Origin: an uncultured Pseudobutyrivibrio sp.
Lineage (GTDB): Bacteria > Bacillota > Clostridia > Lachnospirales > Lachnospiraceae
Length of the DNA: 64,000 bases
Assembly (NCBI GenBank): GCA_946403965.1
Contig: CAMJBT010000007.1
Span: 397-64,396 of the forward strand
Direction: 5' to 3'
Shown: piece after piece, positions 3,386 to 55,643 of the stretch
How positions within the stretch are numbered: the first letter of the stretch is position 1
How the letters are laid out: every line of letters starts with the position of its first letter
The notes under the pieces: generated by a model
What the model was told of the DNA's origin: nothing
The model's input: the letters and a program-made list of their open reading frames with translations, nothing else
Database searches by the model: none
Made by a program: the position numbers and the translations under genes

Positions 3386-4048
3386 TTAATCTTTAGTTTG
3401 CATAATAATCAGCTTGCCAGTTTTAATGCTGATTTCACCTATGTCAGCTAAAAGTTCGTTGCTGACTGTGAGAGTATTAAATCCCTCTACTTTTTCATTA
3501 GATAAGGGATATTTAAAGCCTGTCATGGTAAGTCCATTCACTATTTCCATGTAAGGAAATACAGAAACATATTTACCAAATTGAGATTCCTTTTTTATCT
3601 GTAAAGTCTCTCCTGCTCCAATCATTTGGATTAAATTATGGCTATCAACCATTGTCACAGCCCTGTCTGCAAGAATTCCCTTACCAATCAGTGCAATGTT
3701 TCCCATTACATGATCTAGCCTTGTGCCTGTGCCACCCATTAAATATATTTTATCCCTTGGTGATGTCCTTTCTATAGCTACACCAAGGGCAGCCTCCATA
3801 TCTGTATCATCCTTTATGGGATTTAAACGCACCAGATCAACTCCTGAAGATATAGCTCTTTCAAGTGTTCCCTCGGATGCTGAATCAAAATCCCCTACTA
3901 CAAGATCAGGCTTTAGTCCTAGTGCTAGACATGACTCATATCCTCTATCACAAGCAATAATAAACAAAGAGGATTCATGTAAATCATCAATGAATCCTCT
4001 TGTAAAATCTATGTCAATATTGCCACCTGCAATTATAACAACAGTCAT
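3386..4048 (-). CDS. thiN: Thiamine pyrophosphokinase
   Basis: DLVVGDFDS, KDDTD and GTRLDH motifs; follows rpe. Confidence 0.92.
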   Translation of the reverse strand: MTVVIIAGGNIDIDFTRGFIDDLHESSLFIIACDRGYESCLALGLKPDLVVGDFDSASEGTLERAISSGVDLVRLNPIKDDTDMEAALGVAIERTSPRDKIYLMGGTGTRLDHVMGNIALIGKGILADRAVTMVDSHNLIQMIGAGETLQIKKESQFGKYVSVFPYMEIVNGLTMTGFKYPLSNEKVEGFNTLTVSNELLADIGEISIKTGKLIIMQTKD

Positions 4049-4698
4049 TACATTCTCTCCAAGAGGGCTTCTACATTAGATTTAACATCTCCTGCAAATG
4101 CAGCTGAACCAGCAACAATAATATTGGCTCCAGCATCTAAAACCTGATCGATAGTATCCAGATTAATTCCTCCGTCTACTTCAATATCAAGCTTTAATTT
4201 TTTCTGTTTGCAGATTTCTGAAAGCTCTCTTACCTTGTCTACAGTATATGGAATAAGACGCTGACCGCCAAATCCTGGATTTACAGTCATAATAAGCACC
4301 ATATCCACCTTGTCTAGAACATGAATAATGCTTGAAACAGGAGTTGCAGGGTTAATTGCCACACCAGCCATTGCACCACTGTTTTTGATTAAATCAACTG
4401 TGGCATCAAGATGCTTTGTCGCCTCAGCGTGAACTGTAATGATATCCGCTCCTGCCTCAGCAAATTCCTTCACATAACGTTCTGGATCCATAATCATCAG
4501 GTGGACATCAAATAATCTATCTGTGTATTTACGAATTGTTTTTAATACAGGAAGTCCAAAGCTAATGCTTGGCACAAACATCCCATCCATTACATCAAAA
4601 TGCACATATTGAGCTCCTGCCTCGTCTATAAGCTGAAGCTGCTCCTTAAGAATTCCAAAATCAGCCGATAAAATCGATGGTGCTAAACATCTTTCCAT
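4048..4698 (-). CDS. rpe: Ribulose-phosphate 3-epimerase
   Basis: APSILSADF, HFDVMDG, DVHLM and VDGGIN motifs. Confidence 0.96.
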   Translation of the reverse strand: MERCLAPSILSADFGILKEQLQLIDEAGAQYVHFDVMDGMFVPSISFGLPVLKTIRKYTDRLFDVHLMIMDPERYVKEFAEAGADIITVHAEATKHLDATVDLIKNSGAMAGVAINPATPVSSIIHVLDKVDMVLIMTVNPGFGGQRLIPYTVDKVRELSEICKQKKLKLDIEVDGGINLDTIDQVLDAGANIIVAGSAAFAGDVKSNVEALLERM

Positions 4699-4707
4699 AG
4701 TCTTCTC

Positions 4708-5595
4708 CTACCTATATCTATTATTTTGTTGATCTACCATTTCCATATAAATCTGGATGTAGTTCTCATATCTGCTTTGAGCTATTTTCCCTTCTTCAAG
4801 AGCCTCTTTCACACCACAATCAGGCTCCTTGTAATGAGCGCAGCCTGTAAATCTACAATTGCCAGCCGGCTCAATAAATTCTGGGAACAATGTATATAAA
4901 TCAACTGGCTCTACCTTTGGCACAAAAAGTGAAGAAAAACCTGGAGTATCCATGATATATGTATCTTCACCAATATATAAAAGCTCAGAATGTCTGGTGG
5001 TGTGTTTTCCTCTGCCAATCTTTTCAGATACCTCTCCAGTCTCCATATTCTGACCTTCTGTAAGACGGTTTACAATTGAGCTTTTACCAACTCCTGATGG
5101 TCCAGCAACAGTAGTTGTCTTGCCTTTTAAAACCTCTTTGATAAGCTCCATGCCTTCATTTTCTTTGGCAGAAGTAAAAATCAGCTTGTACCCTGCAGGC
5201 TCATATGTTTTTCGCATCTCAGCCTCAAAACCTTCATCAGCTAAATCCTCTTTGTTGAAACAGATTGTAATTGGAAGCTGATTTTCCTCCATCATACACA
5301 AAAATCTGTCTAGAAGATTCAAGTTAGGCTCAGGACTTTTAGTTGCAAAAATGAGCAATGCCTGATCCACATTTGCCACAGCCGGTCTGATAAGCTCAGA
5401 CTTGCGTGGCAATAGCTTTACTACATTGCCCGTTTTCTCCTCCTGTGAAATTACGTCGATTTCAACATCATCTCCTACAAGAGGCTTTATTTTCTCTTTT
5501 CTGAAGGCACCTTTGGCCTTGCATTCGTAAATGCCAGCTTCTGCTACTTGAACATAGTAGAAGCCAGCAATACCTTTTATTATTTTTCCAATCAT
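4708..5595 (-). CDS. rsgA: Ribosome small-subunit-dependent GTPase
   Basis: Circularly permuted GTPase (NKED, GPSGVGKSS, RGKHTT, DTPGF) with C-terminal CRFTGCAH..EPDC zinc finger. Confidence 0.96.
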   Translation of the reverse strand: MIGKIIKGIAGFYYVQVAEAGIYECKAKGAFRKEKIKPLVGDDVEIDVISQEEKTGNVVKLLPRKSELIRPAVANVDQALLIFATKSPEPNLNLLDRFLCMMEENQLPITICFNKEDLADEGFEAEMRKTYEPAGYKLIFTSAKENEGMELIKEVLKGKTTTVAGPSGVGKSSIVNRLTEGQNMETGEVSEKIGRGKHTTRHSELLYIGEDTYIMDTPGFSSLFVPKVEPVDLYTLFPEFIEPAGNCRFTGCAHYKEPDCGVKEALEEGKIAQSRYENYIQIYMEMVDQQNNRYR

Positions 5596-49561: not shown

Positions 49562-49609
49562 AATTTGTGGATAGTACCGTTAAAGTACCGATGCGTTTGG
49601 CCACGCTAA

Positions 49610-51115
49610 CTACTGAAGAAGTGAAAGAACACCCTGTGTTGACTGATTTGCTTGAGCGAGCATTGACTGGCCTGCCTGAGCAAGAATATTGTTCTTGCTG
49701 TATGTAACCATTTCATCAGCCATATCTGTATCACGAATTCGAGATTCAGATGCTTCTGTGTTCTCTACTACATTATCAAGATTTGCGATTGAGTGCTCGA
49801 GTCTGTTTTGTATAGCACCAAGACCTGATCTTTGAGCAGATACCTTTGCAAGGGCGTCTGCGATTGAGTCGATTGCGTAAGTTGCTGCCTTACCTGTGGC
49901 GTCACTAACGTTTAGTCCCTGGATGCCAAGTGCTGTTGCGCTCATGCATTCGATTGTTACACCAATCTTGTTTGTCATATCAGCATCAGAGCCAACATGA
50001 AGATTGAATGAAAGGTCTTTCTGGACTGTTGCTGAACCTTTTTCGATTCTGAACTCTACCTTTACAGGTGGATCTGTCTTCACATCATCTGGCAACTTAC
50101 CATTTACTTTATCAGTGTCCTGTGTTGGATCTGTATCATCGAATGTATTATCACCTATCTTTGCAGTTGGAATTTTGATGATTGAATCACATCCAATTGA
50201 TGAAGCTGCTCTAAGTTCATTTGCCATAAGCTGATATGCCTTCGCTGCTGTAATAACTGTTGCATCCTTGTCATCAACACCATCATCTGGTTCCTTCGCG
50301 TCTGCTGTGCTGAATAAAACTGCAACCTTACCATTGTACTCAATTGTTGAGCCCTGGCTTGCGAACTTGTTAAGGTGTGATGCCTTAACCTCTGATGTAT
50401 AAGCGTTAGTCTCAGTAGAAATAGTAAATGACTTACCATCAATCTTTACTACTTCACCTACTGTAAGATGAGGTTCAGCACTTTCCTCTGCAGATGTTCC
50501 TAGAACAGTTAAGGCATTTGCTAACTGGGTAGTAGGATCATCACCTCCAACACCGATTGTATACTTTGTACCACCAATTGTTACTGTGTCACCCATTGCA
50601 AGAGCATTGATGGTGAAAGTAGCTGTTGTTGTGTTCTGTGTAAGTGTGCCTGCAAGACCTGCGTCATGAGCTGCAATAACTTGTGTCTTGGTGCCGTAGT
50701 CCCCCTTGAGAAGATAGGTCTCGTTGAACTTTGTCGTTTCAGAAACTCGATCAATCTCAGTTGTAAGCTGTAAAATCTCATCCTGAATAGATGAGCGGTC
50801 ACTTTCTGAGTTTGTTCCGTTTGCTGCCTGGACTGCCAACTCATTCATTCTCTGAAGCATTGAATGTACCTCTGTAAGGGCACCTTCGGCGGTCTGTACT
50901 GCTGAGATACCATCTGATGCGTTTGTTGATGCCTGATCAAGACCTCGAATCTGCTTGCGCATTTTCTCAGAAATTGAAAGACCTGCTGCATCGTCTGCGG
51001 CTCTATTAATTCTAAAACCAGATGAAAGTTTCTCAGTAGATTTAGACTGAGCATTTGTTGTAATTCCTAACATTCTTGAAGCATTAGCTGCCTGCATATT
51101 GTGTTGTACTACCAT
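49610..51115 (-). CDS. fliC: Flagellin (fla1), 501 aa
   Basis: Conserved N-terminal (RINRAADDAAGL) and C-terminal (LGAIQNRLE, SRIRDTD) D0/D1 regions. The true start is ATG 51115 after AAGGAGG, not 51268. Confidence 0.97.
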   Translation of the reverse strand: MVVQHNMQAANASRMLGITTNAQSKSTEKLSSGFRINRAADDAAGLSISEKMRKQIRGLDQASTNASDGISAVQTAEGALTEVHSMLQRMNELAVQAANGTNSESDRSSIQDEILQLTTEIDRVSETTKFNETYLLKGDYGTKTQVIAAHDAGLAGTLTQNTTTATFTINALAMGDTVTIGGTKYTIGVGGDDPTTQLANALTVLGTSAEESAEPHLTVGEVVKIDGKSFTISTETNAYTSEVKASHLNKFASQGSTIEYNGKVAVLFSTADAKEPDDGVDDKDATVITAAKAYQLMANELRAASSIGCDSIIKIPTAKIGDNTFDDTDPTQDTDKVNGKLPDDVKTDPPVKVEFRIEKGSATVQKDLSFNLHVGSDADMTNKIGVTIECMSATALGIQGLNVSDATGKAATYAIDSIADALAKVSAQRSGLGAIQNRLEHSIANLDNVVENTEASESRIRDTDMADEMVTYSKNNILAQAGQSMLAQANQSTQGVLSLLQ

Positions 51116-51119
51116 AATT

Positions 51120-51161
51120 TCTACCTCCTTGTAGATACTCTTGTGATTCCATTCATAAGAG
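51120..51161 (-). promoter_or_regulatory. Tandem CsrA-type hairpins in the fla1 leader
   Basis: CUCUU..AUGGAA..AAGAG, then UCUAC-AAGGAG-GUAGA with the SD in the loop; same architecture as Bacillus hag. Confidence 0.8.
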
Positions 51162-51463
51162 ATGCGATGAACGCATAACATAAAATTTAAAGTTTCAATG
51201 ATTAGGAATGCTACATACTTTAGGCTGCATCCGTATCTATATAACAAGGGAGTGACCAACCTCCGCATGCTACCAAAGGAAGAAATCTCACTATTTTCTG
51301 AACTGCTTGGTCTCAGAAAATAACGAGCAGTAGTATAACAGCTTTATTAAATTGTAAAGCTACGATTCAGTAGTAACTCTTCCGCGCGATAGATGAAAAA
51401 TTACCACCTGGAAGGACAACAAAAACTTGATAAATTTAAGTTTACTGTTTCCATCTACTTTAA

Positions 51464-51501: not shown

Positions 51502-51533
51502 AAAAAAAGAGGACCTCCCGAAGGAAGTCCCCT
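51502..51533 (-). terminator. Intrinsic terminator of fla2
   Basis: GGGGACUUCC-UUCG-GGAGGUCCUC-U7. Confidence 0.9.
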
Positions 51534-51607
51534 AATTTACTAGTATTTAAACTAGTCTGCGCGAAACGATTAACTGGATTCTAACTAATCAAAAACTAAT
51601 TGCTAGA

Positions 51608-53077
51608 TTATCCAAGGATTGATAATACGCCCTGTGTTGACTGGTTAGCCTGTGCAAGCATTGCCTGACCTGCCTGCTGAAGAATGTTATTCTTGCTGTA
51701 GTTAACCATTTCATCTGCCATGTCTGTATCACGGATACGTGATTCAGAAGCATTTGTATTCTCAACTACGTTGTCTACGTTAGCGATTGTGTGCTCTAAT
51801 CTGTTCTGGATAGCACCGAGTGAAGATCTCTGTGCAGATACCTTTGAAACAGCGTCAGCGATTGCATCGATAGCGTATGTAGCAGCTTTACCTGTAGCAT
51901 CAGCAACATTAAGTCCCTGAATACCAAGTGAAGCAGAGCTCATGTCTGTGATTGTAACGCCAATCTTGTTTGTCATATCAGCGTCAGAACCAACATGAAG
52001 GTTGAATGTAAGGTCATTCTGAACTGAAGCCTCACCCTTTGTCATTGTGAAGGTTACTTTGTTGTCCTTCATATCAGCTGGTAACTGGTTATTGTAGTCA
52101 GCCTCTTTATATGATGCACTTGTGCCACCTTCATCAATTGATCCTTTAGTTGGCGCTTTAATAACTTCATCTGCTCCAATTGAAGAAGCTGCACGAAGTT
52201 CATTTGCAATAAGTTCATAAGCCTTATCAGCTGTGATAAGTGTTGAATCCTTCTCATCAACACCATCTTTAGGACCATCTTCTTTGTTAAATAATGTTAC
52301 TGACTTACCGTTGTACTCAATTGTTGAGCCCTGGCTTGCAAAGAGATTAAGCTGTGTTGCAGCAACTTCTGATGTATCAGCATTTGTAGTTTTAGCAATA
52401 GTAAATGACTTTCCATCAATCTTAACTACTTCACCAATCTCCAAATCATCCTCAGATGTGCCAAGAACTGTAAGACCATTTGCGAGCTGCTTATCAGGAT
52501 CATCACCAGCTACACCAATTGTGTACTTTGTACCACCGATTGTGTATGTATCGCCCATTGCAAGAGCATTCATTGTAAATGTAGCTGTTGTGGTGTTCTG
52601 TGTAAGTGTTCCTGCAAGACCTGCATCATGAGCAGCGATCTTGATTGTCTTTGTACCATAATCGCCCTTAAGAAGATAGGTCTCGTTGAATTTTGTTGTC
52701 TCAGCAACACGGTCAATTTCTGTTGTAAGCTGATTAATTTCGTCCTGGATAGAAGAACGATCAGACTCACTGTTTGTTCCGTTTGCTGCCTGTACTGCAA
52801 GCTCGTTCATTCTCTGAAGCATTGAGTGAACTTCTGTTAAAGCACCTTCAGCTGTCTGCACTGCAGATACACCGTCCTGAGCATTTGTAGATGCCTGATC
52901 AAGACCTCTAATCTGCTTGCGCATCTTTTCTGAAATTGAAAGACCAGCTGCGTCATCAGCTGCACGGTTAATCTTAAAACCAGATGCTAACTTCTCTGTT
53001 GACTTAGACTGATTTCCTGCTGTGATGTTGAGCATTCTTGAAGCATTGGATGCTTGCATATTGTGTTGTACTACCAT
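51608..53077 (-). CDS. fliC: Flagellin (fla2), 489 aa
   Basis: Flagellin termini as in fla1; AAGGAGG RBS. Confidence 0.97.
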   Translation of the reverse strand: MVVQHNMQASNASRMLNITAGNQSKSTEKLASGFKINRAADDAAGLSISEKMRKQIRGLDQASTNAQDGVSAVQTAEGALTEVHSMLQRMNELAVQAANGTNSESDRSSIQDEINQLTTEIDRVAETTKFNETYLLKGDYGTKTIKIAAHDAGLAGTLTQNTTTATFTMNALAMGDTYTIGGTKYTIGVAGDDPDKQLANGLTVLGTSEDDLEIGEVVKIDGKSFTIAKTTNADTSEVAATQLNLFASQGSTIEYNGKSVTLFNKEDGPKDGVDEKDSTLITADKAYELIANELRAASSIGADEVIKAPTKGSIDEGGTSASYKEADYNNQLPADMKDNKVTFTMTKGEASVQNDLTFNLHVGSDADMTNKIGVTITDMSSASLGIQGLNVADATGKAATYAIDAIADAVSKVSAQRSSLGAIQNRLEHTIANVDNVVENTNASESRIRDTDMADEMVNYSKNNILQQAGQAMLAQANQSTQGVLSILG

Positions 53078-53174: not shown

Positions 53175-53265
53175 TGTTAACAATTACTAACCGCTATCCA
53201 GTAGCTAACTGAATAACTATCTATAATCAACACAGTACTCGCGCGACATACTGCATGACTATCGC
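53175..53265 (-). ncRNA. Candidate cis-regulatory RNA (H-type pseudoknot plus P3 stem) in the fla2 leader
   Basis: GCGAUA-GUCAUG-CAGUA-UGUCGC-GCGAG-UACUG, followed by a UGUUGAU/GUUAACA stem; compensatory changes relative to the fla3 copy. Confidence 0.6.
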
Positions 53266-53499: not shown

Positions 53500-53712
53500 C
53501 TCATCCTTGCAAATTTAATATCGGATGACTTTCTTAAAACTTAACCCCTTTTTAGAAAATTTTTTATTATTTTTTATTTCATTCTAAATGCTTAGGTCAA
53601 GCTTGATTTATGGGGGTGTTATTTTTGCCCCTCATCACCCTTGCAATCTATATATCGGAAGCTCTGTTATAAACTTAACCCCTTTTTAAAAAAATTTTAT
53701 TTTTATATCTAA
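53500..53712 (-). repeat. Direct repeat (two units 134 bp apart), each carrying a sigma28 promoter
   Basis: TTAAG-N14-TCCGATAT at 53518-53544 and 53652-53678; identical aaacttaacccctttttA core and shared ccttgcaa. Confidence 0.85.
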
Positions 53713-53740: not shown

Positions 53741-53774
53741 AAAAAGGACCTCCTTTATAATGAAGGAGGCCCTT
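53741..53774 (-). terminator. Intrinsic terminator of fla3
   Basis: AAGGGCCUCCUU-N7-AAGGAGGUCCUU plus a U-run. Confidence 0.88.
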
Positions 53775-53877
53775 GAATTAAGCTTATATTTCTAGTCACG
53801 GGAAAATTGGTTAATTATTCTTGAATGTTTCATTTAAATCATTCTCAAGAATTCTACACTATTAAATTATGGTTTCT

Positions 53878-55344
53878 CTACCCCAAGATAGAAAGTACTC
53901 CCTGAGTAGACTGGTTAGCCTGAGCAAGCATAGCCTGACCTGCCTGAGCAAGAATATTGTTCTTGCTGTAGTTAACCATTTCTTCTGCCATATCTGTATC
54001 ACGGATACGTGACTCAGATGCATTTGTATTCTCAACTACGTTGTCTACGTTTGCAATTGTGTGCTCTAATCTGTTCTGAATAGCACCAAGCGAAGATCTC
54101 TGTGCAGATACCTTTGAAACAGCGTCAGCGATTGCATCGATAGCATATGTAGCAGCCTTACCTGTAGCATCAGAAACGTTAAGTCCCTTAATACCAAGAC
54201 CTGTAGAGCTCATATCTGTAATTGTAACTCCAATCTTATTTGTCATGTCAGCATCAGAACCAACATGAAGGTTAAATGTAAGGTCATTCTGAACTGTAGC
54301 TTCACCCTTTGTAAGAGAGAACTCAACAGTCTTATCTTTTACATCGGTAGGCATCTTTCCATTTGAATCAGTTGCATTAGCTGCTGCTGATGCAGTTCCA
54401 GTACCAACTTTAATTGTTCCATCTTTAACAGCTGTTGTTGCTCCAATGTTTGAAGCAGCCTTAAACTCATTCAAAATAAGATTATATGCCTTTTCCTCAG
54501 TAATAAGCTGTCGATTATTCTTATCAACACCATCACTAGGAGCCTTACCTGATGCTTCACTAAATAATGTTACAGACTTTCCATTGTACTCAATAGTAGA
54601 TCCCTGACCAGCAAATGTGCCAATCTCATCTTTCTTTACTTCTGCTGTATCAGAATTTGTTTTATCAGCAACTGTAAATGACTTACCATCAATCTTAATT
54701 ACTTCGCCATCATCAAGATTGTCTGCACCTAATACTTTAAGTGCATTTTCAAGTTGCTTTTCCTTGTTATCTCCAGAAACACCAATTGTGTACTTTGTTC
54801 CACCAATTGTATAGCTGTCGCCCATTGCCAACTGATTCATTGTAAATGTAGCCTTTGATGTATTCTGAGTAAGTGTTCCATCAAGACCTGCATCATGAGC
54901 TGCAATTTTGATAGTCTTTGTGCCATAGTCACCTTTTAATAGGTATGACTCGTTAAACTTTGTTGTCTCAGCAACACGATCGATTTCAGTTGTAAGCTGG
55001 TTAATTTCATCCTGGATAGAAGAACGATCTGACTCACTGTTTGTTCCGTTTGAAGCCTGAACTGCAAGTTCATTCATTCTCTGAAGCATTGAATGAACTT
55101 CTGTAAGAGCACCTTCAGCTGTCTGCACTGCAGAAACACCATCCTGTGCATTTGTAGAAGCCTGAGAAAGACCTCTAATCTGCTTACGCATCTTTTCTGA
55201 AATTGAAAGGCCAGCTGCATCATCTGCTGCGCGGTTAATCTTAAATCCGCTTGCCAACTTTTCAGTTGATTTTGCCTGGCTTCCAGAAGTGATGTTAAGC
55301 ATTCTTGAAGCGTTACTTGCCTGCATGTTGTGTTGTACTACCAT
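53878..55344 (-). CDS. fliC: Flagellin (fla3), 488 aa
   Basis: Flagellin termini as in fla1; AAGGAGG RBS. Confidence 0.97.
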   Translation of the reverse strand: MVVQHNMQASNASRMLNITSGSQAKSTEKLASGFKINRAADDAAGLSISEKMRKQIRGLSQASTNAQDGVSAVQTAEGALTEVHSMLQRMNELAVQASNGTNSESDRSSIQDEINQLTTEIDRVAETTKFNESYLLKGDYGTKTIKIAAHDAGLDGTLTQNTSKATFTMNQLAMGDSYTIGGTKYTIGVSGDNKEKQLENALKVLGADNLDDGEVIKIDGKSFTVADKTNSDTAEVKKDEIGTFAGQGSTIEYNGKSVTLFSEASGKAPSDGVDKNNRQLITEEKAYNLILNEFKAASNIGATTAVKDGTIKVGTGTASAAANATDSNGKMPTDVKDKTVEFSLTKGEATVQNDLTFNLHVGSDADMTNKIGVTITDMSSTGLGIKGLNVSDATGKAATYAIDAIADAVSKVSAQRSSLGAIQNRLEHTIANVDNVVENTNASESRIRDTDMAEEMVNYSKNNILAQAGQAMLAQANQSTQGVLSILG

Positions 55345-55347
55345 ATA

Positions 55348-55390
55348 TCTACCTCCTTGTAGAAAGTTTCCGAGAATCCTTTCCCGGAAA
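55348..55390 (-). promoter_or_regulatory. Tandem CsrA-type hairpins in the fla3 leader
   Basis: UUUCCGGGAA-AGGA-UUCUCGGAAA, then UCUAC-AAGGAG-GUAGA. Confidence 0.8.
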
Positions 55391-55405
55391 GTGCCAAACG
55401 CACCC

Positions 55406-55490
55406 TTGGTTAATAAATACCCCTGGCTTATGTTTTAAACATAAAGCCCTTAACCAACAGTACTCCCGTGATATACTGTCCTGTTATCAC
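55406..55490 (-). ncRNA. Candidate cis-regulatory RNA (H-type pseudoknot plus P3 stem) in the fla3 leader
   Basis: GUGAUA-ACAGGA-CAGUA-UAUCAC-GGGAG-UACUG, followed by a UUGGUUAA/UUAACCAA stem. Confidence 0.6.
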
Positions 55491-55643
55491 GTTATAAAAA
55501 ATTACCTTACAGATGCTCGCTCATTCATCTGTAACATTATAATAACATCTTTTTCTGAAATTAACAGATATTTCACTAAATGTTCATACTTTTAGGGTTA
55601 ACTTTCTTTCGAAATTCACGACAGATTTTTCCTTGCAACAACT

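Follow-up and report, generated by a model that had tools for sequence, protein, structure and literature searches.

The two ends of the fla3 and fla2 flagellin mRNAs of an uncultured Pseudobutyrivibrio very probably pair with each other, judging by comparison of the sequences across the genus. The pairing, which we call H1, joins the loop of a hairpin in each leader to a short stretch of the same gene's 3′ UTR. The H1 strands stay complementary via compensatory changes, which is the signature of RNA base pairing between UTRs. Our preferred reading, in which we place reasonable but far from complete confidence, is that paralogue-specific 5′-3′ UTR pairing in cis (H1, and partly a second helix, H2) would control the mRNA lifetime and/or translation of fla2- and fla3-type genes.

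Flagellin genes in the window

The window, the whole 64,000-nucleotide stretch of Pseudobutyrivibrio DNA that was analysed, carries three tandem flagellin genes (fla3, fla2, and fla1) on the minus strand, with one intrinsic terminator per gene. Database records matched by the fla3 protein also give Pseudobutyrivibrio as the genus, a member of the Lachnospiraceae that lives in the rumen. The coding sequences and transcription signals are as follows.

53878..55344, minus strand: fla3 flagellin coding sequence, 488 aa, from the ORF list (flagellin N and C domains in the identical protein P0001)
51608..53077, minus strand: fla2 flagellin coding sequence, 489 aa
49610-51115, minus strand: fla1 flagellin coding sequence
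53741..53772, minus strand: fla3 intrinsic terminator, GGGCCUCCUU...AAGGAGGUCC plus a U run
51502..51533, minus strand: fla2 intrinsic terminator
55536..55547, minus strand: putative -10 region of a sigma-A type promoter of fla3, TGTTATTATAAT, found by eye

The mechanical ORF list gives fla1 as a 552-aa frame (49610-51268). As the flagellin start, MVVQHN with the shared Shine-Dalgarno sequence (SD), is at 51115, the first 51 codons of that ORF belong to the leader. The SD context CUACAAGGAGGUAGA stands just 5′ of the start codon in fla3, fla2, and fla1.

Promoter types differ among the three genes. Sigma-D-like promoters (TAAAGTTT...CCGATAA) precede fla2 and fla1: two in tandem before fla2 (53652-53658 and 53518-53524), which would give a leader of 430-565 nt, and a single one before fla1 at about 51470. 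No CCGATA box was seen upstream of fla3, which has only the TGTTATTATAAT block; this block resembles an extended -10 and is kept in 5 Pseudobutyrivibrio genomes. From its position we infer a fla3 transcription start near 55529, which would place the leader hairpin about 50 nt into the transcript.

A leader loop complementary to the 3′ UTR

The elements of H1 in fla3 and fla2 are listed below, together with the box that adjoins the 3′ UTR strand.

55457..55479, minus strand: fla3 leader hairpin, stem ACAGUA/UACUGU with the 11-nt loop UAUCACGGGAG
55463..55471, minus strand: fla3 H1 leader strand UCACGGGAG, the 3′ part of the hairpin loop, with core 7-mer CACGGGA
53796..53804, minus strand: fla3 H1 3′ UTR strand UUCCCGUGA, with core UCCCGUG at 53803-53797
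53233..53253, minus strand: fla2 leader hairpin, stem CAGUA/UACUG with loop UGUCGCGCGAG (53248-53238)
53238..53247, minus strand: fla2 H1 leader strand GUCGCGCGAG
51555..51565, minus strand: fla2 H1 3′ UTR strand UUCGCGC(A)GAC, with core UCGCGCA at 51564-51558
53792..53797, minus strand: GACUAG box directly after the H1 3′ UTR strand, present in nearly all fla2- and fla3-type 3′ UTRs

In fla3, H1 consists of UCACGGGAG and UUCCCGUGA and has 9 pairs, 8 of them Watson-Crick and one G-U. The original prediction had described this pairing and the leader sequence correctly but had placed the leader strand one base off, at 55464-55472 instead of 55471-55463. It had also described the 3′ UTR motif UUUUCCCGUGACUAG, which is indeed found at 53806-53792 on the minus strand; the H1 strand within it lies about 25 nt upstream of the terminator stem. 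When the fla3 3′ UTR is folded in isolation, this strand is predicted to be mostly unpaired, with an opening cost of 0.7 kcal/mol. The fla2 counterpart was likewise found as described, at 53247-53238 in the leader and 51566-51552 in the 3′ UTR; its 3′ UTR motif UUUCGCGCAGACUAG is homologous to the fla3 motif, and H1 there has 7-10 pairs. The sites cost little to open; with that cost counted, H1 on its own is predicted to yield about -8 to -9 kcal/mol. RNAduplex runs of whole leaders against whole 3′ UTRs were dropped, as long interior loops make the energies meaningless.

Within the window alone, H1 is no better than chance. The fla3 H1 is the best contiguous helix between that leader and 3′ UTR, and it was equalled in 22% of dinucleotide shuffles of the 3′ UTR; for fla2, 54% of such shuffles gave a helix as good. 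All weight therefore falls on the cross-genome comparison. The chance level in the window also speaks for a reading without function, which we consider unlikely overall: H1 would be the relic of an inverted partial duplication of the leader, and its covariation would stem from chance, ancestry, or gene conversion among tandem paralogues.

The otherwise rare tetramer CUAG is conserved: ACUAGU...ACUAGU makes a small hairpin in the fla2 3′ UTR (51539-51556), and UACUAG recurs in fla2-type leaders about 40-60 nt upstream of the leader hairpin. The fla2 3′ motif UUUCGCGC (51559-51566) is also complementary to GCGCGGAA in the fla1 leader (51380-51387) over 8 pairs, one of them G-U. This fla1 segment is a degenerate copy of the hairpin loop, about 170 nt downstream of the fla2 motif; in a read-through transcript they would pair locally, around the terminator of fla2 and the promoter of fla1. 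The segment carrying GCGCGGAA is missing from several relatives.

Covariation of H1 across the genus

We collected flagellin arrays from 33 further species-level Pseudobutyrivibrio genomes, from metagenome and genome contigs, and from contigs encoding close homologues, and kept every gene with the leader hairpin for comparison. The resulting alignment, anchored on the helix, held 21 distinct leader/3′ UTR combinations, both orthologous and paralogous. In genes of this set with H1, the 3′ UTR motif is always at the homologous place, just 5′ of (G)ACUAG and the terminator. The H1 cores fall into the following classes.

Window fla3: leader CACGGGA, 3′ UTR UCCCGUG
G017 (sp. YE44): leader CACGCGA, 3′ UTR UCGCGUG
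v3 (G011, G007, G049, UC1225, and several ENA contigs; nine distinct genes): leader CGCACGA, 3′ UTR UCGUGCG
fla2 type: leader CGCGCGA, 3′ UTR UCGCGCA, with the terminal C opposite A, or a bulged A
G010 and G023: leader UGCGCGA, 3′ UTR UCGCGCA, with C changed to U, which pairs with that A
L234 (hybrid): leader CGCGCGA, 3′ UTR UCGCGUG, with one G-U pair

The covariation that was apparent from two genes holds out of sample. Across the 21 combinations, both partners have changed in 4 of the 8 H1 pairs, and each of the inner 6 forms a standard pair in 21/21 rows. In a shuffle control that ignores relatedness, 0/500 replicates matched either the observed count of covarying pairs or the covariation score, and sliding the register by 1 or 2 columns left 0 double changes. 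The stem of the leader hairpin is itself paired in 99% of cells, with 3/6 pairs changed on both sides. It had been claimed that the leader and 3′ UTR motifs of fla2 and fla3 are homologous and that each tracks its own partner; the compensatory changes seen across the genus bear this out.

All five sequence classes are self-matched, and the hybrid L234 stays paired via its G-U. We also ran the comparison of true with shuffled leader/3′ UTR pairings at class level: no other of the 24 assignments scores as well as the true one, and with six classes 8/720 equal it. Finally, we performed a blind scan of all 2,081 contiguous leader/3′ UTR helices in 161 flagellin genes, mapped to homologues by pairwise alignment. 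H1 ranked first: it had 3 covarying pairs, and 0% of its cells were broken. A cut-off of at least 3 covarying pairs and no more than 15% broken cells was passed by eleven helix instances, and by 0 in the reversed-sequence controls.

These results bear directly on whether H1 could be a functionless relic. Independent classes are few, as such a relic would allow. The events behind the covariation come from a single genus and comprise three clean double substitutions, two changes of a terminal pair, and one wobble. A relic would drift, however; instead, every internal change is matched on the partner strand 1.7 kb away, and the reversed-sequence controls contain no helix with at least 3 covarying pairs. 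As for gene conversion between inverted segments of 7-8 bp, we know of no process that would carry it out.

The sequence of the cores also bears on what kind of molecule reads them. The fla2 core CGCGCG is palindromic, so complementarity there is not separable from same-sense similarity. The fla3-type cores are not palindromes; the two sites are thus complementary and dissimilar, and this speaks against recognition of both, as RNA, by a single protein. Taken at the level of DNA, the two sites are inverted repeats bracketing the whole flagellin gene, and they could be sites for a recombinase (gene-flipping phase variation) or paired operators. Flagellar phase variation by inversion occurs in other bacteria. 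We nevertheless regard a DNA-level role as very improbable. The repeats are only 7-9 plus 8 bp long, the leader copy sits in the loop of a hairpin with a covarying stem, and the tolerance of G-U wobble (in L234, and in the window at the terminal pair) can be understood only at the RNA level. Besides, no recombinase gene was called beside the array, and the neighbouring genes encode an ABC transporter and flagellins; in every locus with neighbours examined (the window, L226-L232), the genes keep one order and direction; and fla2 and fla3 would require different proteins. Non-palindromic complementary cores, compensatory changes, G-U tolerance, and a target within a covarying hairpin together point to RNA-RNA pairing and not to a DNA or protein site.

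The original prediction had further proposed that only a full-length transcript can unfold a pseudoknot in its leader, an idea that is weakly supported because the upstream strand of this pseudoknot is patchily conserved. The GAUA of that strand is widely conserved, but the full 6-bp helix is found in some genes only, and the upstream strand GYGAUA is absent from most fla3 leaders of the v3 type, whose 3′ UTR pairing is intact.

The hybrid gene comes from an NCBI metagenome contig (JAMQYI010226045.1), where it stands in the place of fla3, directly behind the ABC-3 transporter gene. It is 85% identical to fla3, yet it has a sigma-D promoter, a fla2-type leader, and a 3′ UTR without GACUAG. This combination is evidence, at the level of sequence, for reshuffling of leaders and trailers between paralogues.

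In a crude own-versus-cross test of the best helix in 155 flagellin genes of many Lachnospiraceae, the trend outside the genus was weak (mean z 0.3, P 0.04-0.1), and we therefore claim no generality.

A second, adjacent helix

A second helix, H2, which the original prediction had missed, adjoins H1. Its strands are as follows.

55450..55457, minus strand: fla3 H2 leader strand UUGGUUAA, directly 3′ of the hairpin
53807..53814, minus strand: fla3 H2 3′ UTR strand UUAACCAA, just upstream of the H1 strand
53224..53229, minus strand: candidate fla2 H2 leader strand UGAUUA, the positional homologue of fla3 UUGGUUAA, with a G-C to A-U change
51567..51572, minus strand: candidate fla2 H2 3′ UTR strand UAAUCG

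In fla3, H2 is an 8-bp Watson-Crick helix that arises in 0.2% of shuffles (P about 0.002). Between its 3′ UTR strand and the H1 core stand three U's (53806-53804), the third of which is also the U of the H1 G-U pair. UUAACCAA is invariant in all fla3-type 3′ UTRs seen, as is the leader core UGGUUA in all fla3-type leaders seen; the leader strand as a whole is nearly invariant. This constancy of the flanks (UUAACCAA and GACUAG), next to a core that varies only in step with the leader, also counts against a relic without function.

The candidate H2 of the window fla2 is weak (6 pairs, one of them G-U). One fla2 subclade has UUGGAUA/UAUCCAA at the H2 position, with a compensatory U-A to A-U change, and in L236 the strand UAUCCGG keeps the pairing by wobble. 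H2 could not be traced in many other fla2-type genes, and no consistent alignment of it was obtained across the fla2-type set. An own-versus-cross energy test for H2 gave P = 0.008, a value driven by related clusters, with many fla2 genes ranking low. Judged by these comparisons, H2 appears secure for fla3-type genes and one fla2 subclade only. Co-folding of 35-45-nt fragments predicted the two-part duplex of H1 and H2 in 6/6 genes, with ddG from -8 to -23 kcal/mol.

An extreme form is seen in the first flagellin gene of G006 (L009-455, on L009/L038), whose 3′ UTR UAAUUAACAGUAUAGUCGCGCAGG is a near-full inverted copy of 20 nt of the leader, running from the leader loop through the 3′ stem and beyond. 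There, H1 and H2 are predicted to merge into a near-continuous 20-bp duplex. A duplex of about this length would open the leader hairpin and is a possible RNase III substrate. The inverted copy may show how the motif originated; it suggests an origin by duplication, as the relic of an inverted leader segment would have.

Other contacts and paralogues without the 3′ partner

Several paralogues carry the leader hairpin without the 3′ partner: the 'middle-type' genes (L039-3498, L016, L019, L066+4550, and L241+9845) and the short gene L058. Loss of the 3′ motif in some paralogues is compatible with a relic without function; it also means that the hairpin, being kept there, must work without the 3′ UTR as well. 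In the 'middle-type' gene of L039 (G022; 3498-4985, reverse strand), and also in L016, L066, and L242, the hairpin loop is GUGGCGCGCG and no CGCG motif is present at the 3′ end. These leaders have UUAUUAAUCGAAA at the place of UUAAGGAUCGAA in other leaders, and it is complementary over 13 pairs to UUUCGGUUAAUAA, 6 nt after the stop codon. An 8-bp core of this helix is kept in 5 homologues.

Genes of the fla1 type have a different pair of hairpins. The leader hairpin is GGAG-GUUGGUCA-CUCC (51249-51264, minus strand), with a covarying stem and an invariant loop, and the 3′ UTR hairpin, right behind the stop codon, is GCGU-GGCCAA-ACGC (49593-49606, minus strand). Their loops, at 51260-51253 and 49602-49597, are complementary over 6 nt (UUGGUC/GGCCAA) and make a candidate end-to-end contact. 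Both hairpins occur together in 27/27 fla1-type genes seen. Covariation of the loop-loop pair was not found among these genes; in one genome the leader loop is UUGGCC, which turns the G-U pair into G-C. A family-wide pattern search for the fla1 3′ UTR hairpin with 2 mismatches returned as many hits as the controls and was uninformative. The blind scan also flagged an extra fla1-type helix between the leader loop UAAAGUAU and GUACUUUA in the 3′ UTR, which we rejected: by eye, it is lost in genes whose 3′ UTR has an inserted hairpin, and its 'covariation' looks like an alignment artefact.

The fla1 3′ UTR hairpin GCGUGGCCAAACGC has an exact 14-nt complement, GCGUUUGGCCACGC, in the fla3 leader of sp. 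YE44 (G017, L007), about 67 nt upstream of the start. In the window this leader sequence has a shorter counterpart (GCGUUUGGCAC, about 55392-55402).

Comparison with known systems

A 2021 review (PMC7821165) lists RNAIII/hld, icaR, and hbs as cases in which a 3′ UTR pairs with its own 5′ UTR, all found by experiment on single genes, and asks whether such pairing is more general. Two of these, icaR and hbs, had been named as precedents in the original prediction, and they are the right ones. To our knowledge, none of the three reviewed cases rests on covariation.

In B. subtilis hbs, a 14-bp 5′/3′ helix shields a mapped RNase Y site, as tested by mutation (Braun, Durand and Condon 2017, PMC5737220). 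The flagellin mRNAs would resemble it in being very abundant, monocistronic Firmicute transcripts that have a structured leader, end at an intrinsic terminator, and pair their 5′ and 3′ UTRs over a long distance. Helix size is similar (14 bp in hbs; 7-9 plus 8 bp in the flagellin mRNAs). In contrast to hbs, the genes are flagellins, the 3′ UTR would clamp a hairpin loop together with its 3′ flank in two parts, and the evidence comes from phylogenetic covariation and not from experiment.

In S. aureus icaR, as the review describes it, the 3′ UTR carries an anti-Shine-Dalgarno motif, whose pairing closes off the ribosome-binding site and creates a substrate for RNase III (Ruiz de los Mozos et al. 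2013, via PMC7821165). The likeness to that account is that a 3′ UTR motif would pair with the 5′ UTR of its own mRNA, and the 3′ strand of the window fla3 also contains UCCC; the difference is that the flagellin target lies 110-125 nt upstream of the SD. We considered an icaR-type anti-SD function and rejected it. The target loop is at 55471-55463 and the SD, AAGGAGG, is at 55358-55352, and the orthologous cores UCGCGUG and UCGUGCG are not anti-SD; with the target more than 100 nt upstream of the SD, icaR-type masking does not fit.

In S. aureus RNAIII (hld), again as summarised in the review, a 7-bp long-range helix joins the RNA ends, as shown by probing (Benito et al. 2000, via PMC7821165). 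The flagellin mRNAs would likewise have a long-range helix between the ends of one RNA; on that summary, RNAIII differs in being mainly a regulatory RNA, and its helix was not derived from paralogue covariation.

The three flagellin leaders of the window also carry possible elements of a different kind of control. Flagellin leaders of the B. subtilis hag type are controlled by CsrA/FliW. The leaders studied here belong to the same gene class and carry a GGA-loop hairpin and a GGA-containing SD; the difference is that this GGA element is separate from the H1 hairpin and lies about 80 nt downstream of it. Every flagellin leader ends in a hairpin with AGGAAAGGA in the loop, followed by the SD CAAGGAGG (55368-55389 and 55352-55358 in fla3), which is the classic two-site CsrA layout. 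The stem of this SD-proximal hairpin, UUCCG/CGGAA in the window and CUCCC/GGGAG or CUUCC/GGAAG in relatives, covaries. The H1 loop as a CsrA site was rejected: GGA is present only in the window fla3 loop, and the other classes have CGCGAG or CACGAG, so that with most orthologous loops (CGCGCGAG, CGCACGAG) lacking GGA, the loop is not a CsrA site.

In a search against Rfam, no family reached its gathering score, with sub-threshold hits only. One of these, sbrA, reached 29.4 where its gathering score is 45; the match covered the fla2 pre-terminator region, with the GACUAG box and the ACUAGU hairpin, and the terminator itself. A literature search returned nothing on flagellin 5′-3′ UTR pairing or on flagellin regulation in Pseudobutyrivibrio.

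Proposed mechanism

We propose the following arrangement for fla2- and fla3-type mRNAs. The first site would be the 3′ part of the 11-nt leader hairpin loop, 100-180 nt upstream of the start codon; the second, a 7-9-nt stretch of the 3′ UTR about 25-35 nt before the intrinsic terminator, would pair with it as H1. In fla3-type and part of the fla2-type genes, leader bases 3′ of the hairpin would also pair with 3′ UTR bases 5′ of the H1 strand as H2. The 3′ UTR would thus clamp the leader hairpin on both sides, and the two ends of an mRNA of roughly 1.8 kb would meet. The predicted geometry resembles a pseudoknot, with a 2-4-nt remainder of the loop, the 7-9-bp H1, the 5-6-bp stem bridged by 3-11 nt of 3′ UTR, and H2. 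The pairing code varies by paralogue and lineage and is held by compensatory mutation.

Both sites probably lie on one transcript, as the predicted promoters are upstream of the hairpins and the terminators downstream of the motifs. Within one cell fla3 and fla2 use different codes, as would be expected if each mRNA recognised itself; the pairing is presumably in cis. The same complementarity and covariation would also be seen if the pairing acted in trans, with a stable 3′ UTR fragment or whole flagellin mRNAs pairing with leader loops of the same paralogue as an sRNA-like feedback. The motif lies 25-35 nt upstream of a strong terminator, as is usual for 3′ UTR-derived sRNAs; flagellin mRNAs are very abundant; and two fla2-type genes of G023 share one 3′ code. 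Against action in trans, paralogue-specific codes within one cell are explained more simply by self-recognition, and neither a processing site nor a separate promoter is evident in the sequence; we judge it to be quite improbable.

For pairing in cis, the expected effect would be on mRNA lifetime and/or translation, exerted when transcription has run to its end. If hbs is a guide, this would most likely take the form of protecting the long leader from RNase Y or RNase J. Because the H1 site is far from the ribosome-binding site, any effect on translation would have to be indirect.

Meaning of the finding

On the comparative evidence, the flagellin H1 is a real, conserved, covarying 5′-3′ UTR contact, and it would be a variant of a rare known kind. 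If true, this would be a fourth case of a bacterial mRNA pairing its own UTRs, in a different and very highly expressed class of genes. The architecture would be distinct, with a hairpin loop and its flank clamped by the 3′ UTR far from the ribosome-binding site and with codes specific to each paralogue. It would offer a way into the question of how each mRNA is controlled on its own in bacteria that have several flagellin genes, and it suggests that comparing leaders and trailers for covariation could find such contacts genome-wide. More tentatively, and with doubt prevailing over confidence, matched 5′/3′ 'address codes' that close the mRNA may be a general design of flagellin genes, each paralogue having its own code: the clamp in fla3 and fla2, a loop-loop kiss in fla1, and an AU-rich helix in the 'middle-type' genes. 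If this were true, and the same were found in other bacteria, flagellin would be the first gene family with end-to-end mRNA pairing as a rule that can be read from covariation.
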